A DNA stretch of 64,000 nucleotides, taken from a virus. The notes beneath the pieces are model-generated. The model saw only the letters and a program-made list of their open reading frames with translations. It ran no database searches and was not told the origin of the DNA. The stretch is taken from IMG/VR virus record IMGVR_UViG_3300023184_000093, positions 9,000-72,999 of that record, one strand, 5' to 3'. The position numbers were made by a program, and so were the translations under genes. Positions 18,201 through 55,167 of the stretch are shown one piece after another. Numbering within the stretch: the first letter of the stretch is position 1; each line of letters opens with the position of its first letter.

Positions 18201-21200
18201 TACTAACACATCCGTGATAACCATAGGGTCAGGTACAGTTAGTTTAAGTACATTGGATCCATTCATTGCAAGTACTTATAATTTACATAGCGTTTATTTT
18301 AATGGTAATAGTTCATTGTCTCTTACTTCTTCAAGGCTAGCACTAGGCAGTTTGTTGTTCAACGGTACCAGTCAGACTCTTACCTTTTCGGCACAAACTG
18401 CACTTTCGTTTGGCACTGGAGATTTAACCATAGAAATGTGGGTTTATCCTACCTCGCTTGCACCTGATGGTATATATGCAGGGTTAATAGATGCAAGATC
18501 AGGATCTGGAAACACGTCGTGGAATGTTGGCTTATTTGTATCTGCAGGTAATATGTATGCTTACATGCAAATAATAGGAGCCACAGGAAATCCATCGGGT
18601 ACTACTATAATTCCATTAAATGCTTGGACACATATAGCCTGGACAAGACAAAGTTCTACATTTAAAATTTTTGTTAATGGTGTTGTTGATTATACTGCTA
18701 GTGAGACTCGTGCAATTGATGCCGGAGGTACTAGTCAAACAATAGGAAGACATAATGAAGCAGGTCGTTATTATCGTGGTTATATTTCTACCTTGAGAAT
18801 TGTTAAAGGTACCGCAGTTTATACATCATCCTTTAATCCATTATTACAAGTAATTGGTAATATTGTTAACACATCATTGCTATTATTAGTTACTAGCGAT
18901 GCCAATAAAATAATAGATTCAAGCAGCACTCCGGTTACATTAACTAATAATGGTGCTGTTTCTTTTAGTTCCGTGACGGTTCCGCCAGCCCCGCAATATT
19001 GGTTATATAGTGATCACACAGTAGAGTCATGGGTATATTTAAACTCGTCTACAATTACAACTAATAATATAACAAGTAATATGTTAATAGCCGGAACATA
19101 TGATGGTGCGACTACTACCGGCTGGGAATGGACAATCAATCCTTATGTGATGACACTTAATTATAGAAATTCTGGAGTAGTAATATCTTTTGGTACAAGT
19201 CAATTACCTATTCTTAGCCAGGTTATTGCAGACAGAGGTGGAATTGGTCTAAGTCCAACAAACACAGCGGTAACATTAAGTCCTGCAAGTCCTCTTTCTG
19301 ATGGTTATGGAAGTTTATATTTTAACGGTACAAATGCCCAAATAACAAACCCAAAAAATAGTGGATTCGATTATGGATCAGGAAGTTTTACTATTGAATC
19401 TTGGGTATACTATCTTGGCACAGTCGCCTCAACTACTATTATAGGTCATCAGGCTGGCCCAACTCCGGGAAGATCCTGGATGTTTACTATGCTAATTGCC
19501 GGCCACTTATATTTTGATTGGTCCTCAAATGGTAGTTATGGCACGCCCGGGTCTTTTGTTAGTTCTTCAACCGCTCCACTAAATCAATGGAATCATGTGG
19601 CATTTGTGAGAAATGGTACAATTTACACATTTTATATAAATGGTGTTGCTGCTGGCTCGGGTTCCATGACTGCTGGGATAGCGTTTCCAAATTCAGGGTC
19701 ATTGGCCATTGGTTATACTGCAAATGAAACCACAAGCGGACAATCATTTTTTAAAGGGTATATATCTAACCTACGTGTAGTTAAAGGACTGGCAGTATAT
19801 ACTGGTAATTTTACACCCACTGGGCGATTAACTTCTACACAAGTTGCCGGTACAAATATACAAGCAATATTAACTGCAAGTTATACCAGCATTTTATTGG
19901 CGGCAAATCCAGCAGTTTCTTCTCAAACATTTGCACTAAACACATGGCATCATGTAGTATTCACAAGACAAGGCACTACCTCTACAATGTATATTAATGG
20001 TGTTCAAACAACATCAACTGTGATCAGTGGATATACCGATCAATATACTCTCCGCCTTGGATACATAGGATTTACTAGCCCTACATCATCCTACCTAACA
20101 GGATATCTTAGTAACTTTAGAATAGTCAATGGTGTAGCGGTGTATACAGGAACAAACTTTCTTCCACCCACTGGTGTATTAACTTTACAACAACCAGCTA
20201 ACCCGTTTGGTGGAACAAATACTAATGCTATTACAGATACTAATAATATTAGAATTTCAACATTGGCATTTAGTGGTGTTACCATAACACCATATAATAC
20301 CAATTCAAATATGTTGATAGGTAGAGCAGGATCTGGTATAACCAGCGTGTTTCCTGGATATCTATCTAATTTTAGAATAGTCAATGGTACCGCAGTGTAT
20401 ACTGGTAATTTTACTGCACCTAGAGCACCATTATCATTACTTAAGAATACTAGTTTGTTAATTGCCGCTAGTAGCTGGTATGTAGATAAAAGTCCATATA
20501 ATTTTCAAATCAGCACTGGAACGGTGAGTAGTGTGCCTGCTATAACAAAATTCACACCTTACAAAATACCCGGTGAATATAATAGATCTATAGTTGGTGG
20601 TAGTATATATTTTAATACAACAACAGCAGCTGGACAGAATTTAAGTCTTGGTTCGCCTAGCTCATTGGCATTAGGTAGCGGAAATTATACAGTAGAATGT
20701 TGGATATATATTAATGCATATAATACATTAAACAGTGTTATTATAGATTGGCGTACTAATGCGGGCACCACTGCCGGTGTACCTGTATTATATCTATTAG
20801 CCAATGGAACTATACAATGGCAAAATACTGGCGGCACAGGTCTTTTAACTTCAGCTGTAACTTCACCTATCTCTGATCGTATAATATTGAATACATGGAA
20901 TCATATTGCCATGGTTAGATATAATTCAATGTTGTATATGTATATCAATGGTGTGGTTGTAGCCAATGTAGCAGATTCTACAGCATTAACAATTCAAACA
21001 CTTTTCATTAATAGTCCCATTACAGCCAGCAATCAAACATTGTTTGGTTATGTATCTAATGTTAGAATACTAGCAGGAACAGCTTTGTATGTACCAAGTA
21101 TAGTTGTTCCAACTACAACTTTAACAGTTCTTCCTGACACGGCGTTATTGGCATTAAAAACCAATGCAACTTTAATTAAAGATAATTCACAGAATAATTT

Positions 21201-24200
21201 TTTTATAGCAGACTCAACTAGTACAACAATTCAAAGAGTATTCACACCGTTTGGTGGTAGTGGTAGTGCATTTTTTGGTAATAGAAATACATTCTTAACT
21301 ATTAGTAGTAGTACAAATTCAGCGTTTGCATTGGGCACCAACGATTTTACTTTAGAAGCCTGGGTATATCAAACGGAACGTAATATATATTTTGGATCAT
21401 TAATTGTTGGAGCACTTACCTATAATGTATCTCTTCTTTCTTCAGATTGGCATTGGATAATTGATCCTAGTGGATATCTAAATTTTCAGTCAGGGTATCC
21501 TGCAGTTTATAGTGCAACATCAAATGTTAAAGTTCCATTAAATGTGTGGACACATGTTTCGTTTGTAAGAAATTTTGGATCACCTTCTTTCTATATAAAT
21601 GGAAAGAGTGCAGGTGGTTCTCTTTCAAATTCTACTAGAAATTCAGCAGCCGGTAGTTTATGGTGGGATAATGACGTTGATCTTTATAAAAATACGTCTG
21701 TATATATTAGTACCTCAACCGTTTCAATGTATGATAATTATACCTCCGATGAATGGAGTTTCTTACATAACGGCCAGCAAGATTATACAATTGATCTTTG
21801 GGTTTATTCTAGTTCGTTGTGGGGTGGGTATGCATGGGACGACCCTCTCATCAACCCCTCGTCAACTTCTATTATCAATACTGGGCACTTATCAACGCCA
21901 ATAGGCTTATACATTACTGATTTTGGTGCAGTTAATTTAGCAACTAATTTTGCTCCTTATTATATGTTTACCGTACCTCCTGGACAAGCCCCAAATGATT
22001 TAGCCGGTACTTGGGGCACTAAAATAAGTGGATCACTTTGGTATGGAATTTCTAATGCCACTGAATATATTGGTGTTTACGCAGGTGCTGGATCTATTCA
22101 ACCAAATATATGGAATCATATAGCAGTAACATTTAAATCTAGCACCAAAGAAATAAAACTTTTTATAAATGGAAAAAATCAATCTGTAACTGTACATAGA
22201 ATGTTAACCAATGGAGCGACCGCTAGTGGAAGTTTTTCATATCCTACTGGTCCTTCGAAGTATACTTTAGGAGTAGGCGGCGCACCCTTCTCTGGATATA
22301 TGACAAATATACGTATAACTAAATCCATTGTATACACCACTGACTATACTATAGTAATACCTACACCTAATATTACTAATGCCATAACATTATTATTAGT
22401 TAATAGTAATGCCAATAAATTTTTAGATTCTAGTGATGGTAATAGGCCACTGCGTTTTGATACTACTGCCAACCCTATTATCTACAGCCCTACATTTAGT
22501 AACAATGTACCATCTATTGTAGTTAATGCGGTAGGATCTACTTTAAGTTTGAATTTTAATGGCAGTTCATATCTAACAGTTCCTTCTAATCCAATATTTG
22601 CATTTGGTACTGGAGATTTCACTGTTGAATGTTGGTGGTATCAAAGCGTGGCCAATACAGATCGAGGGTTTTTAAGCAGCATAGCAGCTACAACTGGCAC
22701 ACCTGCCGTCGGTATACAATTAGCAGGCAACGGTGCATTTACTGGTTTGAATACAGGTGGATCATTTGACACATTCTCATGGACACTACCACTAAGTCAA
22801 TGGAATCATGTAGCCTTTGTTAGAATTAATGGAATAGCATATGCTTATGTAAATGGTGTGCTCGCATCATCTGGTCCTACTACCCTAGGTAATAATTTAG
22901 TTGGTTCTGGATTTGTTATAGGATGCTCATATACTAATAATTTTAGTTTTCTAGCAGTTGGTTATATTTCTAATGTGCGAGTAGTTAAAGGTCTAGGAGT
23001 ATATAACAATAACTTTATTAAACCAACTTCAACATTAACTAATATCACAAATACTGTATTATTATTAAATGTGAACTCATCCGGTAATTATCTAAAAGAT
23101 GATAGCACTACTAATTTTTCTCCTATTACAATTACAGGAAATGTAACTTATAATGCCAGCACACCGTTTAGTTCTGGTGGCAGTTTAGCTTTTGATCAGG
23201 GTGGAGCAGCATCACGCTTGACTTTACCTAGTTCCACAGCATTTAATTTAACTGGTAATTTTACATTAGAAGCATGGATATACCCTACATATTTACTATC
23301 AGGTGGCAATGGAATATTTGATGCCAGAGTTACTGGTGCATCTGCTCTACCGTGGGCTTGGTATGTTGACGGTCCTACTAAGGCACTAGCGTTTTTCAAT
23401 GGAACATATTATATAGGTACTACTCCTATTACTACAAGTACCTGGACACATATTGCTGCCACAAGATCAGGTAGTAATTTTAGAATGTATGTTAATGGTA
23501 TTTTAGATTATACCGCTAGCATAACTGGTGCAATAAGCCCTGGATCTACAAGTGCAGTAGTTGGTATAAAAGATGATAATCTTATCAACTACAAACCAAT
23601 TAATTATATTACTAATTTAAGAATAGTTAATGGTACAGCACTATATACTGGTACTTTTACGGTACCTACTCTCGAATTACAAACTACTCAGCAAGGAACA
23701 GGCACTTATATAAGTGCAATTTTTACCGCAAGTTATGTTTCGTTATTAACAGCACAACACTATGCTATAGCAGATATCAGCGTATTTAATAATTCTATAA
23801 CTAATAATAATGCAGTTAGTGTTTCTAACACAGTGAAACCAGCTCTTACTTTTGATCTAGCAAATGCTAATTTTATTAATACACAAAATATTAATATTGG
23901 AGGGCATGAAAATACTACAGCAACCGCGTTTAGAGGTTACATGAGTAATTTACATGTTGTAAAAGGTCAGGCCAAATATGGTAATGCTTTTAAAACACCT
24001 ACTACTGATTTTACCACACTTACTAATAGTGTATTATTAACAATGTTAAGTACAGATACTAGGTTTGTAGATTACTCAGCCAATGCATTTACTATAACTA
24101 ATACTTCTACATCATTACAAGGATTCTCACCATTTGATGTAAATTATAGTACATATTTTAATGGTACTAGTTATATAAGTATTGGTGACTCATTACCTCT

Positions 24201-27200
24201 TAATCTTTCATCTAGTACAAATTGGACCATAGAAACTTGGGTAAATCCATTAGGAAATTATAGTGTTAACAATAGTATATTATTTGCAAAACGTAATGCT
24301 AGTGCTGGAGCACCTCTTTACAATAGTTTGTATTTTAATGGAACTTCAAATCTAACAGTTACTTCATCAAATTCACCAGGATTTGTTGGTGCTGGTGAAG
24401 ACACTATTGAATGTTGGGTTAATTTTTCATCTTTTACACTTGGCTCTCGCCACGTAATTTTCCAAATTTATAACGGTAATTCAACTTATAACGGAACAAG
24501 TCTAACTTATAGACCCACAGATGGTAATACTGGTACGTTTATTGCTAGTATAGGGAATTCATCAGGGATTAATTCACAGGAGATCTATAGTAATACTGTT
24601 ATTGTAGTTACAAATAAATGGTACCATGTAGCTCTCCAAGCAAATAATCAAGGAGTCTACGCGACCCAAATTGTTCATTCATTGTATCTTAATGGAACTC
24701 CTATTATACTTTATGATTCTTTTGTATCCATCCAGCCCCCCAGTGATTTTTACAATCCGGATAGATCAGCAGATATAGTGCTATCTATAGGAGCAGCATT
24801 ATCAACATATGCAGGGACTGTCAACCTAATAGGTTACATATCAAACTTTAGAATAGTTAACGGTATAGCATTATATAACAGTTTAGTTGATAGGTTAAAT
24901 GACAGTGTTTACCCAATTAAAACAGTAAACAATGTCCCAGAAACTGGACATTTGACATATACAGGTAAGGTTAATATCCCCCTACTACCATTTGGTACCA
25001 CACAACTTGCTAATCCTTCCGGGGGCATTAATACCCGGGCATTATCAACTTCAAGCTATACTACATTATTAGTAGGTAGATTCACAGGAGGTCTTGATTC
25101 TATTGTTGACTATAGTGATTATAATTTATCTATAGTTAATAATTCTGTTGTGGTTTCTACACTTGCTAATAATCAAGTTGGAAGTTTATATTTTAATGGC
25201 AGTTCATATTTAACAGCACCAGTTGGAGCAAGTACATTTGGTACAGGTGATTTTACGGTTGAATGTTGGTTCTATAAAACAGCGGCCCTGAATAGCACAT
25301 TATTAAGCAATGTGCCAAGTGGTGTTGATATTAATTATTGGGCATTATCTACCTATGCTGATGGACATTGTCAATTTACAATAAGAGATGCTAGTCAAAT
25401 ATTTGTTACTGGTAGTATAATCACTGCAATTAACACATGGGTTCATCTAGCGGTAACAAGAACATCTGGACTTGTTAAATTGTTTGTTAATGGTGTATTA
25501 GATAATTCAGGGACTATTACTAAAACCGTTACTGCTAGAATAACTGTTATTGGGGCTTTCTTATATACTGGATATTTGTCGTATTTCCAAGGTTATATGT
25601 CTAATGTTAGAATAGTAACCGGTGCCGCAGTGTATACCACTGCATTTATTAAACCATATGCACCATTGAGCAATACACAAACTTCTAATACAAGTGGTCT
25701 TCCAAGTATAGCAATTCCATCTTTAAATTATAGTGCATCATTTGATGGAAGCACACAATATTTGTATGTTCCAACTACTACTGATATGGTGCTTGGTACT
25801 GGAGATTTTACTATAGAACTATGGGTATATTTGAATGCTGCACCGGCGTCTGGCAAAGTGTTTCTAATGTTAGATTTTAGACCTGCTCTTACACCTAGTA
25901 CAGCGGCCGGATATATTAACTTCTACGTTAGCCCAAGTTTACAAATTGGGGCAAATCTTGCTGCATTTTCTTATGGAGGTGGAACTGCATTGGCTCTTAG
26001 TACCTGGTATCATGTAGCTTTGGTCAGACGAAATAGTAATTCAAATATATATATTAATGGATCGGCTATTGGAGGAGGAATTACTGATACAAATAATTAT
26101 CTCGGTGCAACAAATAGACCAGTAATTGGCACAGATAGTAATTCTGTGTTAGCAGCTGGATATTCTTTAAATGGTTACATCTCTAACCTAAGAATAGTAA
26201 AAGGCATTAGTGCATACGCAGGTAACTTTACCAAGCCAACTAGTTCACTAACTCTTAGCCAGGTTCCATCGGGTAATATACTTAGAATTCCTGCAAGTTT
26301 GAATACATTAACTTATAAAATTTTCTCAATCACTGGAAACACTGGAAACAATGCAACAAATGGATATATAAAACTAGGGAATGGTAACATATACTTTAAT
26401 TTATATGATATTTGGTCAGCAGAATGTTGGTTCTATTCCCCCACTGGTTCATCATTTGGTCAAATTATGGGAACACGGAGCAGCTTGAATGCTGGATATG
26501 CTGCTTTTCTCTTTGCAGAAGTTAATAATGTATTACAATTTTATTCTTCTTCTAACGCCTCTAGTTGGGATTTGTTTAATACGCCAGTTAATACTGTTGC
26601 AACCATAACACCAAATACATGGCATCACATAGCGGTTAGTAGAACTACTACTACAATGTATGTTTATTATGATGGAACAGTATCACTTACACGTGACCTT
26701 ACAGGAATTGGATTTTCTGGATCTCAACATAACATTTATATGGGTGCAGGCGATTATTTAAACCAGGGCAGCGATAGTTGGACAGGATATATTGCTGATT
26801 TTAGATTTGTTACTGGTGAAACTCCGTATACTGGTACAAATTTTACTCCTCCTAGTATACCATTAGAAGCTACACAAGAAAAGTCTGGTCAAATTGGACC
26901 AATTGTATTTACAACCTCAACACGTTTTTTAGTTGGCGGAACACTTCCAACTCCAGGCTACTCGCTTGGTCTAGGAGCACTAACTATTGCTGATCGTAGT
27001 TATTATCAGAATCCTGAAGTAACACGATGGCCATCCTTTTTTCCAGGTTCTGTTGGTACCTCAGTAGCTGGTATATTAGGTGGAACTACTCCTGGATTCC
27101 CTACACTTACTCCAAATTATACTACTTTATTAACATTGCAATCACCAATTGTTGCAAATACTTCTAATAATAATGTTAGCATTGTTAATATAGGTACTGT

Positions 27201-29049
27201 TCTTACTACAACTAAAAATCCTTTTGGTGCAGCAGCAACTAGTTTGTTAACAGCAAATTTTGTTGATGAAAATATATCCATTGTTGATTCATCAGGAAAT
27301 TCATTTGCTATTACTAATGTTGGTGGAGTTACTACTTCTACTGCATTAAATCCATTTGCAGCAGCATATGGATCGGCAACTGCATCTTATGAAGGATATT
27401 TAAATAGCGGTACAGGCTTTTTAGGATTCTTTGACGGAACAACTTACTCAACATCTACAACGGCATTAACTAGTGGTATATGGAGTCACGTTGCTTATAC
27501 ATATGATGGTACCGCTATTCCACCTAGTGTTAATATCTACGTAAATGGCGTCCGTGTTCATCAAACTTCTACACTTTCAATTCAAGATAATCAGGAAACT
27601 TTATACATTGGTGGTGCTTCAGGTGTTATTGAACATTTTTATGGAAATATGAGTAATTTTAGAATAATTAAAGATTATTCATTATATCTTGGATCTTATT
27701 TTGGCGACATTCCTAAATCAATTTTAACCACAAATATTAATACTATTCCTTATCCAAATACATCTACTATTGCTAGCAGTGTATCATTATTAACATTACA
27801 AAGAGGTTCAATTAATGATAATTCAACCTATCAAAATACTGTGTCATTTGGTGGAACACCAACCACTGTATTAATCTCTCCATTTGGAAGTTCTACAATT
27901 ATAAGTACATATTTTAATAGTGGAACAAATTATTTGACTATATCTGCACAAAACGCTTTAAGTTTAGGTGTTGGTGATTTCACTGTAGAGGTATGGGTAT
28001 ATCCAACAGCACCACAGAGTACACTAGCTGGATATTATTCGTCAATTCTTGATGCAAGAGCAAGTGTAGGAGGTATACCATGGATAGTTTCATTAATAAC
28101 TATTGCTGGTGGTGCTCTTAAAGCAATCTTTTATGATGGAACCCAACGTACAGCATCAACTACTGTGCCATTAGGAACTTGGACACATATAGCATGGACA
28201 AGAACAAATTCTATATTAAGAATATTTGTTAACGGTGTAGTAGATTATGTATTAACTAATCACACAATTAATCTATCTGCTGGTACAACTCAATATATAG
28301 GAAGACTGTATGATGGTAATCCTCATTGGTATCAAGGTTATATATCTAATTTAAGAGTAGTTAAAGGTACTTCATTATATACAGGAAACTTTGTTCCATC
28401 ACAAATACCTTTAACTTCAGTAGCAGGTACTTCAACTAATTTATTAACAAACTTTGTTGATACCAGAGCCTTTGATTATTCAGGTAATACAGTAATTAAA
28501 GCAAATACAAGTTCGGTGACTTTAGTAAATTCAGTGGCTAAAAATAATTTATATAGTATTGGATTTAATGGAAGTACTGATTTTATAACTGTTTCTAGCA
28601 GTACAGGATTTATTTACAACGCCAATGATTTTACTTGGGAACTGTGGGTATATCCTACAAGTCCAATTTGGGCTACCACCTCAACATACTTTATAGAACA
28701 TGGTATTAATGGTGGAAGTTTAAGATATGCCAACAATAAAGTTTTCTACTATAACATAAGTACGGCTACTTCTACCGCTAGTACCGTATTAAGTATTAGT
28801 TCATCTACATGGACACATATAGCAGTGGCTAGATCTAGTGGTCTTACATCCTTATTTGTCAATGGATCCTTTGTAGTTAACACTCCTGATTATTATAGTT
28901 ACAATACAGCAACAATTGTAACTATTGGAAATACCAGCACTGCTTCAAGAAACTATTTCCAAGGATATATAGAAGATTTACGTATTACTAAAGGTGTGGC
29001 ACGTTATTCATCAACTTTTGTACCACCTATAAAATTATCTAATAGATAA
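12217..29049 (+). CDS. Giant fibre/adhesin protein: N-terminal Gly-rich domain plus about 22 LamG/ConA-like domains
   Basis: 5610-aa uninterrupted ORF; LamG signature motifs counted by eye. Confidence 0.9.
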   Translation: MPYDLGVIKRQRREPPVISTSTYGGNFVGFYSTGIGDNINYYAVHVFTSSGQFTKPSYVTTTTAQVLVVAGGGGGGLAGGISTSPGGGGGAGGVINSSTYSITATLTILIGAGGPAAGGDVDPAIGTGSASTVTNGVTILVASGGGRGGYNYSTGIDPQASGGAGGSGGGGSYAGFGLGGASTSTQGNIGGTGNAGYTGSPLYAGGGGGAGAVGGSANASASGQGGSGTITLITGSPIWLAGGGGGGANATGYNNGSYGGGGPGGTTSAVAGVAGTTNSGGGGGGGGGTTGAGGSGGSGIVIISYAIPANLYPINQSDPYFGNNSLLLNSLALLPAASLNKISSIISDLSLNQYAVTNNGSLTGKLNPFAPGPYHSLYFNGNNFISIATINAMPATTTDFTVEFWMYTVSSDNITNHWLIGTIVTNGFYVFHRNNYINIGQVGVITYTSPAVFSLNQWTHVAIVRASNIFYIYQNGTSVFTQSWNPTLVAGGVYIGGASSQNAFHTGYLSNVRVVSSVVYTGNFAIPTEPLSTVQNASSNNISVITAGTTLLTGRFATTSTSIVDYSTLTNSMVNFGVTPSSLNPFNNLNSYSVSFNNSSLSATKTNGWVSGNYTVEAWVYLNTVTNASNSMLIAGTYGYGNIIPYMFGWELTINNYLITLNFQSDTTGYNPIKIKTLATTAINTGGQLLTDISLYNAPLNISSNLSQSLESWIFPTNPFNNRYGSFANMAMYNSLYNFNYGPVSRPRMDTIPSFDGATRTFTLEAWIFMDPNLPVFNLAGPIIQGVDWAFGIGNNGTACKLQFVYRRWNSSSATRDFYPYLEGPNNKSMTSTASVPIGQWVHVAFVKNVNPIYPSFYINGVQEISNTGFYYTGGDYMNPDNTYAQVGGVGLLSYVTTGNIGTTGYLDMNAKLFAFISNVRLVQGVAVYTGNFTVPTDNLTITQSSGTNISAIVSNTATTLLTAVTTASITQQVFSTSTWYHVAFTKSSNIVSLYVNGVGYASLTLPDSNFQEKNILQIGKSYSPNNIFLGTFYGTPLYGNISNFRIVNGTVVYPGNFTVPNGPLQLTQVANAYGGTNTAAISNATSVTFLTAKYYSYVGLLLGFNDAGSNNLVVTPTGNPGQGTFSPFGNNWSMLFNGTTDHLSIPIANSSNSGTSFALAFNNNNWTIETWAYLTANAGTAYIAGQYNTSNYSPLGLYITGNKPAVGVSNAGTLWNINPTSPNVLSTGTWNHIAAVRNGGRYSLYVNGIEQIFAVSSVPTVDNSVNAGVLVATNTINSALNPFDQSIYNSLYFDGGSYLNLSANAGYNFGTGDFTIECWIYPLAYVVGSATASEIIDLWSNASGSFIVGQWQIQISAAGLIQFPYATGAAGAATLTSIAIITLNAWSHVAVVRSGSAVGNLKIYLNGAVVATSAGAVIQNIGSTGAGSIGKQTNVASIPYCYNGYISNVRIVKGQALYTASFVPPASSIGVVQVGVAGGGLATSTSTNTTQLLVGKFIDQRYFFDDYSLNNFTLTNNGGVSAATLYPPINSTSTFNSMYFNGTTQYLTIPNATAITLNTGDFTIEAWVYTTVLNGQNGIFGKRELLQYYGVIFRVLNSTNKLVMQIASDTGNTWAIDANLDFGLPALTINTWYHVALVRNGSSFRIYQNGVGGTIYTYAGLIAHNTAPGYIGKSDGSGGGQFWNGYISNFRIVKGVAVYTNNFTVPTGPLNNAQVANPYGGFNTQGINNNGTSILIAKSSSLINEGNVAVDYSIVPNYMTSAVRPTVNNFFPPIGSTSTYYNSLFFDGTQSLTLTAPQTSLSFGTTGEFTIEMWVYPTALALDGIAAGLIDARAGQSGSPWALDLTLSGGNMYLHMTVNTGGGPTGVTPIPLNNWTHIVFTKQNGAIKYYVNGALDISSTSNANTSPLDAGSATQVIGRNNESGRFFKGYISNLRIVKGLAVYTGPFTIPTRPLTITQTANPYGGSNVQAISTGTYTSLLTILPVNVSNIVDYSTNTSVITIGSGTVSLSTLDPFIASTYNLHSVYFNGNSSLSLTSSRLALGSLLFNGTSQTLTFSAQTALSFGTGDLTIEMWVYPTSLAPDGIYAGLIDARSGSGNTSWNVGLFVSAGNMYAYMQIIGATGNPSGTTIIPLNAWTHIAWTRQSSTFKIFVNGVVDYTASETRAIDAGGTSQTIGRHNEAGRYYRGYISTLRIVKGTAVYTSSFNPLLQVIGNIVNTSLLLLVTSDANKIIDSSSTPVTLTNNGAVSFSSVTVPPAPQYWLYSDHTVESWVYLNSSTITTNNITSNMLIAGTYDGATTTGWEWTINPYVMTLNYRNSGVVISFGTSQLPILSQVIADRGGIGLSPTNTAVTLSPASPLSDGYGSLYFNGTNAQITNPKNSGFDYGSGSFTIESWVYYLGTVASTTIIGHQAGPTPGRSWMFTMLIAGHLYFDWSSNGSYGTPGSFVSSSTAPLNQWNHVAFVRNGTIYTFYINGVAAGSGSMTAGIAFPNSGSLAIGYTANETTSGQSFFKGYISNLRVVKGLAVYTGNFTPTGRLTSTQVAGTNIQAILTASYTSILLAANPAVSSQTFALNTWHHVVFTRQGTTSTMYINGVQTTSTVISGYTDQYTLRLGYIGFTSPTSSYLTGYLSNFRIVNGVAVYTGTNFLPPTGVLTLQQPANPFGGTNTNAITDTNNIRISTLAFSGVTITPYNTNSNMLIGRAGSGITSVFPGYLSNFRIVNGTAVYTGNFTAPRAPLSLLKNTSLLIAASSWYVDKSPYNFQISTGTVSSVPAITKFTPYKIPGEYNRSIVGGSIYFNTTTAAGQNLSLGSPSSLALGSGNYTVECWIYINAYNTLNSVIIDWRTNAGTTAGVPVLYLLANGTIQWQNTGGTGLLTSAVTSPISDRIILNTWNHIAMVRYNSMLYMYINGVVVANVADSTALTIQTLFINSPITASNQTLFGYVSNVRILAGTALYVPSIVVPTTTLTVLPDTALLALKTNATLIKDNSQNNFFIADSTSTTIQRVFTPFGGSGSAFFGNRNTFLTISSSTNSAFALGTNDFTLEAWVYQTERNIYFGSLIVGALTYNVSLLSSDWHWIIDPSGYLNFQSGYPAVYSATSNVKVPLNVWTHVSFVRNFGSPSFYINGKSAGGSLSNSTRNSAAGSLWWDNDVDLYKNTSVYISTSTVSMYDNYTSDEWSFLHNGQQDYTIDLWVYSSSLWGGYAWDDPLINPSSTSIINTGHLSTPIGLYITDFGAVNLATNFAPYYMFTVPPGQAPNDLAGTWGTKISGSLWYGISNATEYIGVYAGAGSIQPNIWNHIAVTFKSSTKEIKLFINGKNQSVTVHRMLTNGATASGSFSYPTGPSKYTLGVGGAPFSGYMTNIRITKSIVYTTDYTIVIPTPNITNAITLLLVNSNANKFLDSSDGNRPLRFDTTANPIIYSPTFSNNVPSIVVNAVGSTLSLNFNGSSYLTVPSNPIFAFGTGDFTVECWWYQSVANTDRGFLSSIAATTGTPAVGIQLAGNGAFTGLNTGGSFDTFSWTLPLSQWNHVAFVRINGIAYAYVNGVLASSGPTTLGNNLVGSGFVIGCSYTNNFSFLAVGYISNVRVVKGLGVYNNNFIKPTSTLTNITNTVLLLNVNSSGNYLKDDSTTNFSPITITGNVTYNASTPFSSGGSLAFDQGGAASRLTLPSSTAFNLTGNFTLEAWIYPTYLLSGGNGIFDARVTGASALPWAWYVDGPTKALAFFNGTYYIGTTPITTSTWTHIAATRSGSNFRMYVNGILDYTASITGAISPGSTSAVVGIKDDNLINYKPINYITNLRIVNGTALYTGTFTVPTLELQTTQQGTGTYISAIFTASYVSLLTAQHYAIADISVFNNSITNNNAVSVSNTVKPALTFDLANANFINTQNINIGGHENTTATAFRGYMSNLHVVKGQAKYGNAFKTPTTDFTTLTNSVLLTMLSTDTRFVDYSANAFTITNTSTSLQGFSPFDVNYSTYFNGTSYISIGDSLPLNLSSSTNWTIETWVNPLGNYSVNNSILFAKRNASAGAPLYNSLYFNGTSNLTVTSSNSPGFVGAGEDTIECWVNFSSFTLGSRHVIFQIYNGNSTYNGTSLTYRPTDGNTGTFIASIGNSSGINSQEIYSNTVIVVTNKWYHVALQANNQGVYATQIVHSLYLNGTPIILYDSFVSIQPPSDFYNPDRSADIVLSIGAALSTYAGTVNLIGYISNFRIVNGIALYNSLVDRLNDSVYPIKTVNNVPETGHLTYTGKVNIPLLPFGTTQLANPSGGINTRALSTSSYTTLLVGRFTGGLDSIVDYSDYNLSIVNNSVVVSTLANNQVGSLYFNGSSYLTAPVGASTFGTGDFTVECWFYKTAALNSTLLSNVPSGVDINYWALSTYADGHCQFTIRDASQIFVTGSIITAINTWVHLAVTRTSGLVKLFVNGVLDNSGTITKTVTARITVIGAFLYTGYLSYFQGYMSNVRIVTGAAVYTTAFIKPYAPLSNTQTSNTSGLPSIAIPSLNYSASFDGSTQYLYVPTTTDMVLGTGDFTIELWVYLNAAPASGKVFLMLDFRPALTPSTAAGYINFYVSPSLQIGANLAAFSYGGGTALALSTWYHVALVRRNSNSNIYINGSAIGGGITDTNNYLGATNRPVIGTDSNSVLAAGYSLNGYISNLRIVKGISAYAGNFTKPTSSLTLSQVPSGNILRIPASLNTLTYKIFSITGNTGNNATNGYIKLGNGNIYFNLYDIWSAECWFYSPTGSSFGQIMGTRSSLNAGYAAFLFAEVNNVLQFYSSSNASSWDLFNTPVNTVATITPNTWHHIAVSRTTTTMYVYYDGTVSLTRDLTGIGFSGSQHNIYMGAGDYLNQGSDSWTGYIADFRFVTGETPYTGTNFTPPSIPLEATQEKSGQIGPIVFTTSTRFLVGGTLPTPGYSLGLGALTIADRSYYQNPEVTRWPSFFPGSVGTSVAGILGGTTPGFPTLTPNYTTLLTLQSPIVANTSNNNVSIVNIGTVLTTTKNPFGAAATSLLTANFVDENISIVDSSGNSFAITNVGGVTTSTALNPFAAAYGSATASYEGYLNSGTGFLGFFDGTTYSTSTTALTSGIWSHVAYTYDGTAIPPSVNIYVNGVRVHQTSTLSIQDNQETLYIGGASGVIEHFYGNMSNFRIIKDYSLYLGSYFGDIPKSILTTNINTIPYPNTSTIASSVSLLTLQRGSINDNSTYQNTVSFGGTPTTVLISPFGSSTIISTYFNSGTNYLTISAQNALSLGVGDFTVEVWVYPTAPQSTLAGYYSSILDARASVGGIPWIVSLITIAGGALKAIFYDGTQRTASTTVPLGTWTHIAWTRTNSILRIFVNGVVDYVLTNHTINLSAGTTQYIGRLYDGNPHWYQGYISNLRVVKGTSLYTGNFVPSQIPLTSVAGTSTNLLTNFVDTRAFDYSGNTVIKANTSSVTLVNSVAKNNLYSIGFNGSTDFITVSSSTGFIYNANDFTWELWVYPTSPIWATTSTYFIEHGINGGSLRYANNKVFYYNISTATSTASTVLSISSSTWTHIAVARSSGLTSLFVNGSFVVNTPDYYSYNTATIVTIGNTSTASRNYFQGYIEDLRITKGVARYSSTFVPPIKLSNR

Positions 29050-38944: not shown

Positions 38945-39766
38945 ATGAAAAAACTACTAACTATTGCCTTGCTATTTGTAGCAGGATTAGCTCAAGCCTG
39001 GGACCAACGTGCCCCATTACAACCAGGTGCATGTCAAGTACATAGCCCATATGGATTTGCTGCCACACAAAGAGCAGCACAACCAATTTGCCGCGAAGCT
39101 TACCTAGTCGCATATGATGCTCCTGTTAAGATTCCTGTATATGTAGCATATACATTATTGCCACAAAATGCACTAGGATGCTGGCCACGCACAAATGCGT
39201 TTGTATCAGATCAAAGTGTACAGGGAGGTGCTCGACCGGATGATTATGCTGGTACAGGCTACGACAAAGGTCATATGAGTCCTGATGGCGACTTATCTTG
39301 GTCACAACAGGTTGAATATGAAAGTTTTTTAATGACTAATATGGTACCTCAGAGAGGATCACTTAACAGAGGTATATGGAAACTACTTGAAACCAGCGTT
39401 CGTGGATGGGCAGTTCAATTGAATCAACCATTTACTATCTATGTTGGCGGAATTTACAACAACGGAGATAAACGTATTGGCAACGGTGTTATTGTTCCTC
39501 ATGCTTATTATAAAATTGTTATTAATAATCAAACTAGACAAGTAGCAGGATGGTTGTTCCCGCATGTTGAACCTTACCCAAACTTAGGTAATGACCTAAC
39601 TGTTTTCCGTAAACCAATTGCTGATATTATGCAAGAAGCAGGAGTCAAATATGCTTTCCCCGCAGGAGCAATCGAACTACAACCAGGACAAGAATGGCCT
39701 ATGAATTTTGGACAACTTACAGCGGCTAAGAAACAAAAATGTGGAGCAAATGCTTCAGCTGATTAA
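38945..39766 (+). CDS. Secreted DNA/RNA non-specific endonuclease (NucA/EndA-like His-Me finger)
   Basis: Signal peptide MKKLLTIALLFVAGLAQA; motifs 'YDKGH', 'SFLMTNMVPQ..LNRGIWKLLE', 'VPHAYYKIV'. Confidence 0.9.
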   Translation: MKKLLTIALLFVAGLAQAWDQRAPLQPGACQVHSPYGFAATQRAAQPICREAYLVAYDAPVKIPVYVAYTLLPQNALGCWPRTNAFVSDQSVQGGARPDDYAGTGYDKGHMSPDGDLSWSQQVEYESFLMTNMVPQRGSLNRGIWKLLETSVRGWAVQLNQPFTIYVGGIYNNGDKRIGNGVIVPHAYYKIVINNQTRQVAGWLFPHVEPYPNLGNDLTVFRKPIADIMQEAGVKYAFPAGAIELQPGQEWPMNFGQLTAAKKQKCGANASAD

Positions 39767-40407
39767 GTCTTAGTTTTACAATTATTTCCGTGCCAGCGAG
39801 TATAGTTATTAACACTTATAGTTTTAGAACAATACTCACACACTTTTTTTAACTGCGAAGTATGCCTGCCCTCATCTAATTGTTTTCTCATTATAGATCC
39901 CCCAATTAGATTATGTGTTCCGGCATCTATTCTTGCTTGGTTAGACGCGGGTCCTAAAAAATTATGTGTTTTATTTTCTAATCTTTTTAAGTTAGATTCA
40001 CGTTGAATTTTTCCACCTTGAAAATTATGTGTACCATTAGCTATTTTTTTGTTATTAACTATAGAAGCAGCCTCAACTCCTTTACGTTGAACATTAGGAT
40101 CTAAAAAAGGATGTGTTCCGTCTGCTAACTTTTTATAAGCAACTTTCCTTGCTATCTCTGATAATTCTTCTGAAGATAGTTTCATACGAACAGCTATAGC
40201 ATAACAAGCACCATAATCGCCCTGAGAACAATGAACATCGTAGTGTTCTTGTATAGTAATACCTGTTAAGTTAGCAGGATCGTGATTACTATGATTGCCG
40301 TCTATATGATGGATTTCATAACTTCGTCCTTCACTATCTTTAGGGATAGGACCGTTATGTTCTTGATAGATCTTTCTGTACCTAGCAGTACCACAATAAA
40401 TACACAT
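39763..40407 (-). CDS. Free-standing HNH (homing-type) endonuclease
   Basis: 'YEIHHIDGNHSNHDPANL...EHYDVH' HNH core, five G/K-THxF-like repeats, and a C-terminal CEYC..RWH..NC zinc motif. Confidence 0.85.
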   Translation of the reverse strand: MCIYCGTARYRKIYQEHNGPIPKDSEGRSYEIHHIDGNHSNHDPANLTGITIQEHYDVHCSQGDYGACYAIAVRMKLSSEELSEIARKVAYKKLADGTHPFLDPNVQRKGVEAASIVNNKKIANGTHNFQGGKIQRESNLKRLENKTHNFLGPASNQARIDAGTHNLIGGSIMRKQLDEGRHTSQLKKVCEYCSKTISVNNYTRWHGNNCKTKT

Positions 40408-40475
40408 TGCTGATGCTCCTTCAAAGCGTTAGAGTAGTTGGATATTTCCAGTATCGCGAACTACAACTTTATTTA
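40397..40475. promoter_or_regulatory. Conserved double-hairpin leader/antisense element of the HNH gene (copy 1)
   Basis: 40428-40465 matches 54908-54945 at 36/38 nt. TAAATA occurs on + at 40397-40402 and on - at 40470-40475. Confidence 0.75.
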
Positions 40476-40485
40476 GTTAAATACT

Positions 40486-40578
40486 ATGAATGAAACTACA
40501 AACAATCCAAATGAATATCCAGTCTATCCAGAAGATGATGGCACAGATCGTCCAAGAAATCCTTACAGCCCTGTATGA
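40486..40578 (+). CDS. Small acidic/Pro-rich peptide (30 aa, MNETTNNPNEYPVYPEDDGTDRPRNPYSPV)
   Basis: Read manually; the ATG is 2 nt after TAAATA at 40478-40483; below the ORF-track cutoff. Confidence 0.4.
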   Translation: MNETTNNPNEYPVYPEDDGTDRPRNPYSPV

Positions 40579-40722
40579 AGCACTAGCAAGAGTAGGATGC
40601 GGATTAGCAGGACTCCCTTACCCACCTTAGGGCACGTTAGTCGTCACGGTTATAGGCGTCCGCGCAATTGAACTTCCAGGCGTACTTGGAGCCAGATAAA
40701 GTAACTGGCACTAAATAATACT

Positions 40723-53277: not shown

Positions 53278-54374
53278 GCAAAGAACAATACAACTTGTTG
53301 AAACCAACAAACTATCTCAAACGTAAAATGTTTTTGGATCCTGCAGGTCCAGTTACAGTACAGCGTTTTGAAGAAGTCAAATATCAAAAATTACAAAAGT
53401 ACGAAGAGCTCGCCCGCGGATTCTTTTGGGTTCCAGAAGAAATTAGTCTTACTAAAGATAAGATGGATCACAAAGATGCCAGTGATGCTGTTAAACATAT
53501 CTTCACTAGTAATCTATTAAGACAAACTGCATTGGATAGTATTCAAGGTCGAGCACCATTCCAAATCTTTGGACCAGTATCTAGTTTGCCCGAACTCGAA
53601 GCACTTGCATTGACATGGAGTTTTTTCGAAACCAGCATACACAGCAAATCATATAGTCACATTATTAGAAACATCTATAGTGTGCCCAAGGATGAATTCA
53701 ACAAGATCCACGACACTAAGGAAATTGTTGAAATGGCTGCTAACATAGGACGCCATTATGAAAATCTACACTTACTTAATTGCCGTAAAGAAATGGGTGA
53801 AGAAATTGATCTCCACACTCACAAGCGGGCAATTTGGTTGGCATTACATGCAAGCTATGCACTCGAGGCATTCCGCTTCATGGTATCATTCGCAACATCG
53901 TTGGCTATGGTCGAAAACAAAATCTACATCGGTAACGGAAACATCATTAGTCTCATCCTCCAAGACGAACTCCTCCATGCAGAATGGACCGCTTGGTTGA
54001 TCAACAATGTAGTCAAAGATGACTCAGACTTCGTTGTACTTGAAGAAGAATGTCGTGAAGAAGTATACGCAATGTATATGGAAGTTATTGCTGAAGAAAA
54101 GGCCTGGGCAGATTACTTGTTTAAGAAAGGACCAGTCATTGGTCTCAATGCTACTATTCTAAAAGACTTTGTAGACTATACAGCATTTATACGTTTAAAA
54201 GACATTGGTATCAAGTATGCCGAAGAGCATCCACGTAGCAGTCCTATTCCATGGTTTAACAAACATGTTAACATTGGTAAGAAGCAAAGTGCATTACAGG
54301 AAACTGAAAGCACTAATTATGTTGTGGGAGTTATGAGTTCAGAAGTTAATCATTATGATCTTCCTGATTTGTAA
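53274..54374 (+). CDS. nrdB: Ribonucleoside-diphosphate reductase class Ia beta subunit
   Basis: Motifs '[10 protein letters not shown]', '[10 protein letters not shown]', 'ETSIHSKSY', 'LEAFRF', 'QDELLH', 'QETE..NY'. The start is placed at MSKEQ (53274) rather than 53202. Confidence 0.95.
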
Positions 54375-54885
54375 TTACACTCCATCCTTTAACAGACTTT
54401 TGTCTATGAGCACCTTTAAATAATGAATGAACATTAATTTTACACAAATTGTATTTTGTGTAAAGTTCATTCTTAGTACAGTATTCAATAGTACCGCTTA
54501 CATGACGAAACTTATGTAAACTATGATCGTACTGTCCATTGTTTTTGCCTTTTGTTTTGCTAGTGCGCCCCTTCATTTTTACTCGTTGTAATTCTTTCTG
54601 TCTTTCAGTTCTTATAAGTCCAGCACTACCCTCACCGCCGTCTGTTAAATTGCGCAATGTACCTGTTCCGTTATCTTTACGACCGTACCAACGAATCATT
54701 CGTCTTTCAAGTGCAAGCGCACCGAGATCTGTTAAGTTATGTTCAAGTATAATTATCTGAGATTTGTTTTTAGGAACAGAAATTACTTTTTGCTTTGAAT
54801 ATGCTCGAAGCCCGTTGCCCTTACCAATGTAGTAAGGTGTGCCATCTAATCTTAGATAGGCGTAAACATAAAAGTGTAAATACAT
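54346..54885 (-). CDS. Free-standing GIY-YIG-like homing endonuclease
   Basis: '[18 protein letters not shown]', '[25 protein letters not shown]' and a basic NUMOD-like tail; overlaps the nrdB 3' end. Confidence 0.85.
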
Positions 54886-54955
54886 TGCTGATAGTTCCTT
54901 ATAAACTGTTAGGGTAGTTGGATATGTCCAGTATCGCGAACTACACTTTTATTTA
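54877..54955. promoter_or_regulatory. Conserved double-hairpin leader/antisense element of the GIY-YIG gene (copy 2)
   Basis: Near-identical to 40397-40475. TAAATA occurs on + at 54877-54882 and on - at 54950-54955. Confidence 0.75.
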
Positions 54956-54957
54956 TG

Positions 54958-54986
54958 TTGACTTTATCATTATCGACATATATACT
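54958..54986 (+). promoter_or_regulatory. sigma70-type promoter
   Basis: TTGACT-N17-TATACT. Confidence 0.65.
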
Positions 54987-55005
54987 AATACTATAAAGAT
55001 AAAAT

Positions 55006-55167
55006 ATGGCCGACGCTGATAAAATTAAAAAACTAGAACAATATGTTGAACAATTGATTAAACAAAATCAAGAGTTAAATCAACGTATTAGTTTGTTAGA
55101 AAGAGAAAATACCCGCAGACGCGGAGAGGTTAGTAAAATAACCTCAGTAATTAATAGACGAGGATAA
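55006..55167 (+). CDS. Small coiled-coil protein (53 aa)
   Basis: Read manually: MADADKIKKLEQYVEQLIKQNQELNQRISLLERENTRRRGEVSKITSVINRRG. Confidence 0.65.
   Translation: MADADKIKKLEQYVEQLIKQNQELNQRISLLERENTRRRGEVSKITSVINRRG

Follow-up and report, generated by a model that had tools for sequence, protein, structure and literature searches.

Background

How selfish nuclease genes persist in dense phage genomes, sparing both the operons that they interrupt and the phage itself, is a long-standing question, and the known answers, which the review of Edgell, Gibb and Belfort lists as ribosome-binding-site (RBS) hairpins, autorepression and promoter-less cassettes (PMC2988022), rest on a few genes of T4 and Aeh1. 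In the T4-type arrangement, as set out in PMC3014915 and PMC2988022, a late promoter, a hairpin and the Shine-Dalgarno sequence (SD) with its AUG stand before the homing-endonuclease gene and limit the nuclease to late, low expression. The review also notes that invading genes may carry promoters with them or give rise to antisense transcripts, and mentions T4 segD as lying antisense to its neighbours with no promoter found (PMC2988022). Here we describe a leader, hereafter the cassette, that occurs twice in a 64,000-nt stretch of phage DNA (the window; positions 9,000 to 72,999 of IMG/VR record IMGVR_UViG_3300023184_000093, a 73-kb contig estimated to be 21% complete), once before an HNH and once before a GIY-YIG-like endonuclease gene. 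Within a clade of uncultured T4-like (partly jumbo) phages, the cassette forms a common 5' control region of free-standing homing-endonuclease genes; it is conserved as two hairpins whose covariation points to folding on the strand antisense to the endonuclease, and it is bracketed by two convergent boxes of late-promoter type.

In the RNA-IN/RNA-OUT system of IS10/Tn10, promoters stand face to face and a short, stably folded antisense RNA lies over the SD and AUG of a nuclease-type gene. The cassette resembles this system in its facing boxes, whose predicted promoter activity would give overlapping 5' ends over the SD/AUG of a mobile element, and its covariation and wobble bias indicate a stably folded antisense stem-loop RNA of that type. 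It differs in its phage late-type boxes, in having two hairpins instead of one and an overlap of ~65 nt, and in that the candidate antisense RNA may continue into a host gene. For the T4-like cyanophage S-PM2, Millard et al. (2010), as cited in PMC2984593, reported CfrI, an RNA of ~225 nt that runs antisense to a free-standing homing-endonuclease gene and links it to psbA. Compared by description, the likeness lies in an antisense RNA, here a candidate one, opposite a homing-endonuclease gene; for CfrI no portable leader common to many genes is described.

PeSL elements, in the accounts of PMC2839356 and PMC4122927, are conserved modules that combine a promoter, a stem-loop and an SD; they accompany small genes and can bring about shuffling. 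Their early sigma-70 promoters are co-oriented with the gene, their stems are G/C tracts, and they flank ORFans. Set beside those accounts, the cassette is likewise a compact portable module, and in 43 of 150 cases it is followed by a sigma-70-like promoter on the host strand. It departs from them in having late-type boxes on both strands, two covarying hairpins and a tie to endonucleases, and in that the endonuclease is served by a late-type box and not by a sigma-70 promoter, stem-loop and SD in the orientation of the gene. With the T4-type RBS hairpins (I-TevI, I-TevII, I-TevIII, segB, Aeh1 mobE and gene e) the cassette shares a promoter, a hairpin and an SD/AUG upstream of an endonuclease; unlike them it adds a conserved second, inward-lying box and serves many endonuclease families with one sequence family.

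A literature search that left supplementary catalogues outside its scope found no description of the cassette. In the main text of PMC10690425, which reports more than 10,000 candidate viral RNA structures, endonucleases appear only in a reference, and its supplementary catalogue could hold the motif. Measured against the known kinds, a conserved two-hairpin antisense-strand leader common to several endonuclease families and bracketed by convergent late boxes has no match in the literature searched. Phage biology would gain a new structured RNA motif from it, and it would show that 5' regulatory modules are shuffled between endonuclease families besides nuclease and DNA-binding domains. Moreover, the cassette is a single sequence family with well over 100 natural variants and clear covariation, and its geometry predicts the folding strand, two RNA start points and the silent mutations that matter.

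The leader and the strand on which it folds

A preliminary description of the window, made from its letters alone, held that the two endonuclease genes share a 5' stretch identical at 36 of 38 positions, and alignment of the two copies (40428-40465 and 54908-54945) gives just this, with 2 of 38 positions differing. The 31-nt core of the stretch (40434-40464 and 54914-54944) occurs twice in the window, against none expected from 100 shuffles, and twice in the entire contig. All four TAAATA boxes of that description are present where and on the strands it had placed them, an outer box on the - strand in each copy (40470-40475 and 54950-54955) and an inner box on the + strand within the first codons of each gene (Table 1). 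Predicted folding of both copies also returns the two + strand hairpins it had drawn (hairpins 1' and 2'): the + strand RNA reaches -18.1 kcal/mol (z -2.55) in copy 1 and -16.9 kcal/mol (z -1.84) in copy 2, and the mRNA strand folds no better than shuffles (-10.1 kcal/mol, z +0.41, and -9.2 kcal/mol, z -0.39, respectively).

Across the family the leader reads, in the mRNA sense, (A/C/G)TAAATA, a 5-nt spacer, hairpin 1, YCTA... and hairpin 2, which holds the SD in its loop and 3' arm, followed by CAGC(A)ATG and by TATTTA 0-3 nt past the ATG. In 128 of 137 leaders exactly 5 nt separate the outer box from hairpin 1, so both hairpins lie inside the late transcript, unlike the T4-type arrangement with its late promoter inside the 5' arm.

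The substitutions among the leaders distinguish the two strands. A parse that is independent of any model covers 142 of 148 leaders. It finds 21 distinct outer stems of hairpin 1, which together hold 115 Watson-Crick pairs and 11 pairs that are G-U on the + strand and hence A-C on the mRNA strand; they contain neither a G-U pair on the mRNA strand nor a mismatch of any other kind. Hairpin 1 has 47 distinct inner parts, which covary freely (A-T/G-C; T-A/A-T/G-C/C-G) and on the mRNA strand show 42 A-C against 1 G-U. Hairpin 2, in 105 distinct versions, has a mean energy of -6.52 kcal/mol on the + strand as compared to -2.68 kcal/mol on the mRNA strand and is more stable on the + strand in 101 of them, which sets it apart from the stable SD-sequestering mRNA hairpin of the T4 type. 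A covariance model of the + strand aligned 117 matches from 100 of the 136 loci with distinct leaders, giving 108 distinct rows in which 97.5% of 2145 base-pair cells are paired on the + strand, 83.8% in the same columns on the mRNA strand and 29-52% in slid controls. Compensatory changes occur at 17 of the 20 pairs, the covariation score is 0.533 versus 0.174 in shuffles (0 of 500 shuffles score as high), and G-U cells number 312 on the + strand, spread over 14 pair positions, versus 18 on the mRNA strand. The model-free counts of outer stems, inner parts and hairpin 2 energies agree with this result. Thus, the wobble asymmetry first seen in the two copies is a property of the whole family, and a covariance model of the kind that the preliminary description had called for shows that the homologues do covary. 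The covariation and the G-U/A-C asymmetry together indicate that the structure is maintained in a molecule of the window's + strand sequence, that is, antisense to the endonuclease, as had been proposed.

Distribution and endonuclease families

A scan of IMG/VR for the exact 31-nt core found 49 loci, and two looser scans with the outer stem or the inner part freed added further ones; all totals are lower bounds. With an nhmmer profile the family comprises at least 219 matches in at least 196 loci, corresponding to at least 148 distinct 135-nt leaders, and five large phage records (209-329 kb; three of them complete with terminal repeats) carry 1, 9, 4, 8 and 5 copies. Among the GenBank phages of INPHARED, megablast of both loci found nothing and blastn of the 91-nt leader gave only chance matches at E=10, so that the cassette is carried by no cultured phage of this collection. 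Rfam, which the preliminary description had also suggested consulting, supplied no curated family: Rfam 15 has no match at the gathering score in the whole window, and at E<=10 around copy 1 only a chance match to p27_CRE (40622-40669, E 9.1). The latter falls in a G+C-richer intergenic stretch (40560-40670) between the cassette and the next gene. The species-representative cellular genomes of GTDB hold four exact matches to a 20-nt core pattern. One of these is a complete element and lies on a contig of 6.1 kb from a metagenome-assembled genome labelled Polynucleobacter, from which we draw no host; the other three are without hairpin context.

Seven of the 148 distinct copies (L134, L125, L170, L091, L132, L173 and L161), as read by eye from the leader listing, keep the outer box and hairpin 1 and have lost hairpin 2 and the endonuclease open reading frame (ORF). 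They are probably scars of deleted cassettes.

The proteins encoded downstream of the cassette are in all cases endonucleases of the homing type. Clustering of 159 distinct downstream proteins on their N-terminal 95 residues yields a GIY-YIG-like group, often with NUMOD3 (55 members), a SegE-like GIY-YIG group (48), an HNH/NUMOD3 group corresponding to PHROG 655 (32), an HNH_3 group corresponding to PHROG 12324, to which the HNH gene of the window belongs (8), a classical GIY-YIG group (5) and several singletons, including a DUF559/Vsr-like and an endonuclease-VII-like protein. Homologous leaders thus do lie upstream of HNH and GIY-YIG genes, as the preliminary description had asked, and the idea of a portable module common to unrelated endonucleases extends to at least six families.

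As to the two genes in the window, the HNH gene is present as claimed at 39763-40407 on the - strand, and its product matches Pfam HNH_3 above the cut-off (6.1e-10). The ORF of the second gene, at 54346-54885, is likewise present, and its designation as GIY-YIG-like is weakly backed, as Pfam gives no match to its product at E<=0.01. A 28-member profile of its family gives a weak match (8e-4) to a PDB entry named 'GIY-YIG domain-containing protein'; PF01541 (GIY-YIG) is matched weakly by 4 of the 28 relatives (best 0.002, below the cut-off) and NUMOD3 is found in 15. Residues Y6/Y8/Y10, Y18-Y19-(I20, nearly invariant)-G21, R27, E60 and N79 are invariant in the family and fit what we take to be the GIY-YIG motif. 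The assignment is weak but consistent.

Unrelated ORFs behind one leader might also reflect a role of the ~80 bp as DNA, either as a handle for recombination or as a single-stranded hairpin, with endonuclease ORFs swapping behind it. In the window the HNH gene occupies the host site before a small gene encoding MN..YPVYPE; in locus L017 a Seg-like GIY-YIG gene does, which means that one site is occupied by two endonuclease families. In DNA hairpins, too, G-T is the mildest mismatch. PeSL cassettes of promoter, stem-loop and SD are described as mediating just such shuffling (PMC2839356, PMC4122927). A handle, however, needs sequence identity and not compensatory changes with a wobble bias towards one strand, and promoter boxes at fixed distances would be left unexplained. 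We therefore consider a DNA-level function very unlikely; it may explain how the cassette spreads but not what it does. An operator for autorepression in the style of I-TevI was considered too and was dropped, the leader being common to nucleases with unrelated DNA-binding and catalytic domains.

The inner box

In the window VTAAATA is depleted (35 sites versus 89 +/- 9 expected), as is the full TATAAATA (2 versus 13.9 expected), and 16 of the 35 VTAAATA sites lie within 80 nt (6-65 nt) upstream of ORF starts on the same strand, among them those of nrdA (50779) and of the gene for a secreted NucA-like nuclease (38915). The motif thus behaves like a promoter signal in this phage, and the late-type box seems to serve many genes of the window, including genes of nucleotide metabolism. 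At 43 other TATAAATA sites in related loci the box is followed by the context NNN-G-T-(A/G). For the cassette this predicts that the mRNA begins at the first G of hairpin 1 (G 40464 for the HNH mRNA) and a + strand RNA at the foot of hairpin 2'. Compared with these 43 sites, the cassette has an A-richer spacer behind its outer box, which makes for a U-rich tail on the + strand.

The inner box is constrained as nucleotide sequence. In 119 of 137 leaders TATTTA is found no more than 20 nt from the start codon, and 14 of the remaining 18 have TACTTA; in most leaders the box stands 5-7 nt from the end of hairpin 2. It occurs in all three reading frames (frame offsets 38/21/60 among the leaders with TATTTA; of 130 distinct ORF starts, 35/19/59 at offsets 3/4/5, plus 12 with TACTTA), and synonymous sites within it are fixed: all 59 Ile codons are ATT (background 0.42), all 35 Tyr codons TAT and all 35 Leu codons TTA (background 0.41), and codon 2 ends in T in every one of 71 cases. 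Because the box is present in all frames and its synonymous sites are fixed, it is best read as a nucleotide-level signal. This substantiates the internal TAAATA of the preliminary description as a signal, one that stands at a fixed distance from hairpin 2. The inner box is also retained whatever follows the cassette, in 58 of 70, 19 of 27 and 34 of 41 leaders across three classes of downstream context and in 17 of 20 contexts that have no + strand gene within 350 nt. Since it is kept regardless of whether a downstream gene needs a promoter, its role looks intrinsic to the cassette.

Pairing between TAAATA and TATTTA was examined as the reason for the inner box and rejected. Out of 108 sequences per strand, the helix is part of the predicted minimum free energy structure in 78 on the + strand and in 63 in the sense strand. 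At four flanking positions, however, cognate flanks show no excess of pairing over non-cognate ones (2.05 vs 1.89 on the + strand, 1.83 vs 1.75 in the sense strand), and synonymous changes that would preserve a G-U pair with the outer box, for example ATT to ATC, are never seen, which argues for a constraint on the sequence itself and not on pairing alone.

This bears on the scheme established for I-TevI, segB, Aeh1 mobE and T4 gene e, as recounted in PMC3014915 and PMC2988022. Applied to the cassette, it would have UAAAUA of a read-through sense RNA pair with the UAUUUA that follows the AUG, with the SD inside hairpin 2, so that the start is hidden, and late transcripts that begin past the box would be translated; the box-box helix in the sense predictions speaks in its favour. 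The wobble/mismatch asymmetry, on the other hand, places the selected fold on the other strand, sense hairpin 2 has a mean of only -2.7 kcal/mol, and the late promoter lies upstream of both hairpins and within neither. In addition, ~80% of cassettes are without an upstream gene in the same sense, the recurrent TACTTA variant breaks the sense helix, and the flanks show no cognate covariation (1.83 vs 1.75 pairs of 4). Of the explanations considered here, this mRNA-based one is the least probable.

A candidate cis-antisense RNA

The reading we favour, though tentatively and at somewhat less than an even chance, is that face-to-face late promoters yield a structured cis-antisense RNA over the 5' untranslated region (UTR), SD and AUG of the endonuclease. 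The two TAAATA boxes, facing each other across ~62-66 bp, would act as late promoters, the outer one placing the 5' end of the endonuclease mRNA on the first base of hairpin 1 and the inner one, in codons 2-4, starting an opposite-strand RNA at the foot of hairpin 2. The hairpins would be selected to fold in the opposite-strand RNA and to stay weak in the mRNA. This RNA would be complementary to the entire endonuclease 5' UTR, SD and AUG, would display the anti-SD in the loop of hairpin 2' and would hold down expression of the nuclease as RNA-OUT of IS10 does for the transposase. It may end at hairpin 1' and the U-rich tail, at a length of ~65-70 nt, or it may read into the next host gene, partly or mostly according to context. 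Three features lead us to favour the cis-antisense RNA: the inner box is constrained in sequence, it is kept in any context including those without a nearby + strand gene, and hairpin 2', which complements the SD region exactly and carries the anti-SD in its loop, is as well conserved as hairpin 1'. The promoter activity of both boxes, the starts and ends of the RNAs and the repressive effect are what we infer, and we hold the anatomy of the cassette with high confidence and the mechanism with moderate to low confidence.

Several points limit or weigh against the case for an antisense RNA of this kind. The alignment behind the formal pair counts was fitted to the + strand model. Two RNA-library runs of one study hold 0.07 and 0.06 of the sampled words; their contigs, which stem from relatives of 90-99% similarity, are without strand information and leave 39500-40567 uncovered, and the depth at copy 2 is negligible, so that these runs have no bearing on transcription either way. 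The two boxes are not under identical constraint, as the inner one tolerates TAAGTA (14 of 137) and the outer one never does (0 of 137), and one endonuclease gene without hairpins in a complete 329-kb phage record (G002) also starts ATG ATA TTT ATT. Other points concern the end of the RNA. A consensus terminator scan calls no terminator at hairpin 1' in either copy, the stem is AU-rich and interrupted, and the U run begins 2 nt past it. Where a + strand gene without a promoter motif starts within 30 nt of the tail (28 of 139 contexts), transcription must pass hairpin 1', and where the cassette precedes a helicase gene that is coupled to its neighbour in 46 of 48 relatives, hairpin 1' cannot terminate efficiently. 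Finally, the energy and U content of hairpin 1' do not depend on the presence of a separate promoter for the downstream gene.

With a minimum free energy of about -10 kcal/mol and ~6.8 T in the 12 nt after the stem, hairpin 1' appears to lack what defines an intrinsic (Rho-independent) terminator, namely an uninterrupted G+C-rich stem and an immediate U run. The U-rich tail nevertheless fits at least partial termination, and the + strand RNA may be a short species, the leader of the next host gene, or both.

Insertion sites and the host strand

Neighbouring genes, taken as ORFs of at least 100 aa within 600 nt, mostly run opposite to the endonuclease: the upstream neighbour does so in 63 of 80 and the downstream neighbour in 70 of 86 cases, counts which are approximate because they derive from a crude longest-ORF greedy caller. 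With ~80% of the endonuclease genes antisense to their neighbours, the + strand of the cassette is usually the strand of the host genes, and the position differs from the T4 type, in which the endonuclease is embedded in the same sense in an early or middle polycistronic transcript. The "antisense" strand being the host strand, host-side explanations are open.

Copy 2 in the window illustrates the insertion. Of 80 nrdB relatives, 5 carry the element within 1.2 kb downstream, 71 have downstream flanks of 1.2 kb or more without it, and 4 could not be scored. In L225, L226, L227 and L235, which are close relatives with an empty site, the stop of nrdB and the ATG of the following gene, the homologue of the gene starting at 55006, overlap as TAATG; homology of the window to such relatives stops at 54338-54375 and resumes at 55010-55012, which identifies 54375-55005 as one insert. 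An RNA-library contig of a relative of 90-95% similarity joins 54338 to 55018 with 50 other letters between, and evidently represents the endonuclease-free form of the nrdB junction. Similarly, the gp41-like helicase gene overlaps the stop of the preceding gene (TGATG) in 46 of 48 relatives, and the cassette precedes it in 2 of 48, where a new SD stands ~12 nt past the box. The strong preference for antisense insertion, exactly at stop/start overlaps of essential genes such as nrdB and the helicase gene, bears on the choice of homing sites.

One host-side explanation is that of an insulator: the hairpins would act in the read-through RNA of the host operon, which crosses the inserted endonuclease gene in antisense, and would partially terminate it, stabilise its 3' end or provide a site of processing, thus setting the upstream host message apart from what comes after; the inner TAAATA would be no promoter. 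It would account for the opposite orientation of the neighbours, for the position of the cassette exactly between host genes whose stop and start overlap in empty-site relatives, and for the A-richness of the promoter spacer, which is U-rich on the + strand. The 3' end of the endonuclease gene overlaps the end of the upstream host gene in 46 of 73 cases, so that the cassette is the first structure the host transcript meets, and a sigma-70-like promoter follows hairpin 1' in the 43 of 150 contexts mentioned above versus 8 of 150 on the control strand. The seven copies that retain hairpin 1 without hairpin 2 and ORF point the same way. Yet this explanation leaves unexplained both the frame-independent TATTTA box with its fixed synonymous sites and the strong + strand conservation of hairpin 2', the complement of the SD region; cassettes co-oriented with their neighbours (17 upstream and 16 downstream cases) retain all features, and an efficient terminator is excluded in the helicase context. 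On balance we find it unlikely.

A second explanation sees the inner box as an outward promoter by which the endonuclease pays rent, driving the downstream host gene and so making up for the disruption of a translationally coupled operon, with the hairpins as a stabilising 5' leader and any antisense effect incidental. Of 158 + strand contexts, 139 have a + strand gene start within 350 nt; a sigma-70-like or VTAAATA motif intervenes in 70 of these and is missing in 69, 28 of which have the gene start no more than 30 nt past the U-rich tail. Stop and start overlapped at the helicase and nrdB junctions until the insertion, and the cassette brings a new SD; an RNA made from the inner box would have its 5' end at the foot of hairpin 2', and invading endonucleases may, according to PMC2988022, displace promoters or bring new ones. 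Against this stands that conservation of the box is independent of any downstream promoter and persists in 17 of the 20 contexts without a + strand gene within 350 nt, that a promoter placed outside the endonuclease 5' UTR would serve equally without overlap, and that the geometry of the anti-SD loop is unexplained. As the principal function of the box, outward transcription is thus improbable to a similar degree.

These host-side readings are real rivals of the cis-antisense RNA, and they may hold simultaneously with it. A combined reading, which is possible but which we rate below the cis-antisense reading taken by itself, would make the cassette an interchangeable module with two faces: convergent late promoters would produce the nuclease mRNA and a covarying two-hairpin antisense RNA, and the same strand would re-prime or insulate the split host operon. 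On that reading an IS10-like antisense brake and a device for harmless insertion would be swapped together among HNH, GIY-YIG, Vsr-like and EndoVII-like nucleases.

The complete record G002 permits a comparison within one genome. It holds 26 endonuclease-like regions, 8 with the cassette and the remaining ones with a plain late box and SD upstream. Of the regions opposing both neighbours 5 have the leader and 3 do not, as compared to 2 with and 11 without it among co-oriented ones; this split, in one genome, is suggestive of a device for antisense insertion. Several endonuclease matches in G002 hold in-frame stops and, for this reason, are decayed copies. Two leader-bearing endonuclease regions (68580-70261) lie back to back and point apart, with ~290 nt between the leaders. 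At ~119030-119170 an endonuclease gene follows what by appearance is the 3' part of a tRNA gene; the TATAAATA box there ends 5 nt before the ATG, so its mRNA may be leaderless.

Features and neighbouring genes of the window

The coordinates of both copies, of the two endonuclease genes and of the insert are collected in Table 1.

Table 1. Positions in the window of the cassette elements, the endonuclease genes and the copy 2 insert
Feature	Position	Strand	Basis or remark
Inner TAAATA box, copy 1 (ATAAATA 40396-40402), codons 2-4 of HNH gene	40397..40402	+	Candidate outward/antisense late promoter
Hairpin 2', copy 1: 8-bp stem, 7-nt loop CCUUCAA with anti-SD; complements SD region of HNH gene	40410..40432	+	Predicted fold; covariation
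Hairpin 1', copy 1: 6-bp outer stem, conserved G/GCG bulges, 5-bp inner stem	40434..40464	+	Core count; predicted fold
U-rich + strand tail, copy 1 (AACUUUAUUUAG)	40465..40476		Complement of - strand late box CTAAATA (40470-40476) and 5-nt spacer
HNH homing-endonuclease gene, copy 1 cargo (214 aa)	39763..40407	-	ORF; Pfam HNH_3 6.1e-10; PHROG 12324 'intron-like DNA endonuclease' 5e-44
Inner TAAATA box, copy 2 (GTAAATA 54876-54882), codons 2-3 (ATG TAT TTA)	54877..54882	+	Sequence
Hairpin 2', copy 2: 9-bp stem, loop CCUUAUA	54888..54912	+	Predicted fold
Hairpin 1', copy 2	54914..54944	+	Core count; predicted fold
U-rich + strand tail, copy 2	54945..54956		Complement of - strand late box ATAAATA (54950-54956)
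Sigma-70-like promoter TTGACT-17-TATACT, facing host gene with ATG 55006	54958..54986	+	10/12 matches; inside inserted segment
GIY-YIG-like endonuclease gene, copy 2 cargo (179 aa)	54346..54885	-	ORF; PHROG 15526 (function unknown) 1.1e-22
Whole copy 2 insert: endonuclease, leader, late box, sigma-70-like promoter, new RBS	54375..55005		Comparison with endonuclease-free relatives

On the + strand, 11 nt after the U-rich tail of copy 1, begins a small ORF without an obvious SD (40487-40579; MNETTNNPNEYPVYPEDD...), and L017 has in the same place a homologue (MNNNPDQYPVYPE...) with synonymous differences. On the other side of the HNH gene lies, at 38945-39766 on the + strand, a gene for a DNA/RNA non-specific endonuclease (Pfam Endonuclease_NS 3.1e-37) with an N-terminus that by eye is hydrophobic and signal-peptide-like; its stop overlaps the stop of the convergent HNH gene. 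In L132 (12253-13377) the helicase homologue beside the scar copy is apparently interrupted: the frame opens with unrelated sequence, and what by eye seems to be an intein-like stretch follows the conserved helicase core. The window further contains three giant ORFs on the + strand, at 12217-29049 (5610 aa), 6882-12194 (1770 aa) and 112-4635 (1507 aa), and those of 1507 and 1770 aa match PHROGs of tail fibres, baseplates and virion structural proteins.

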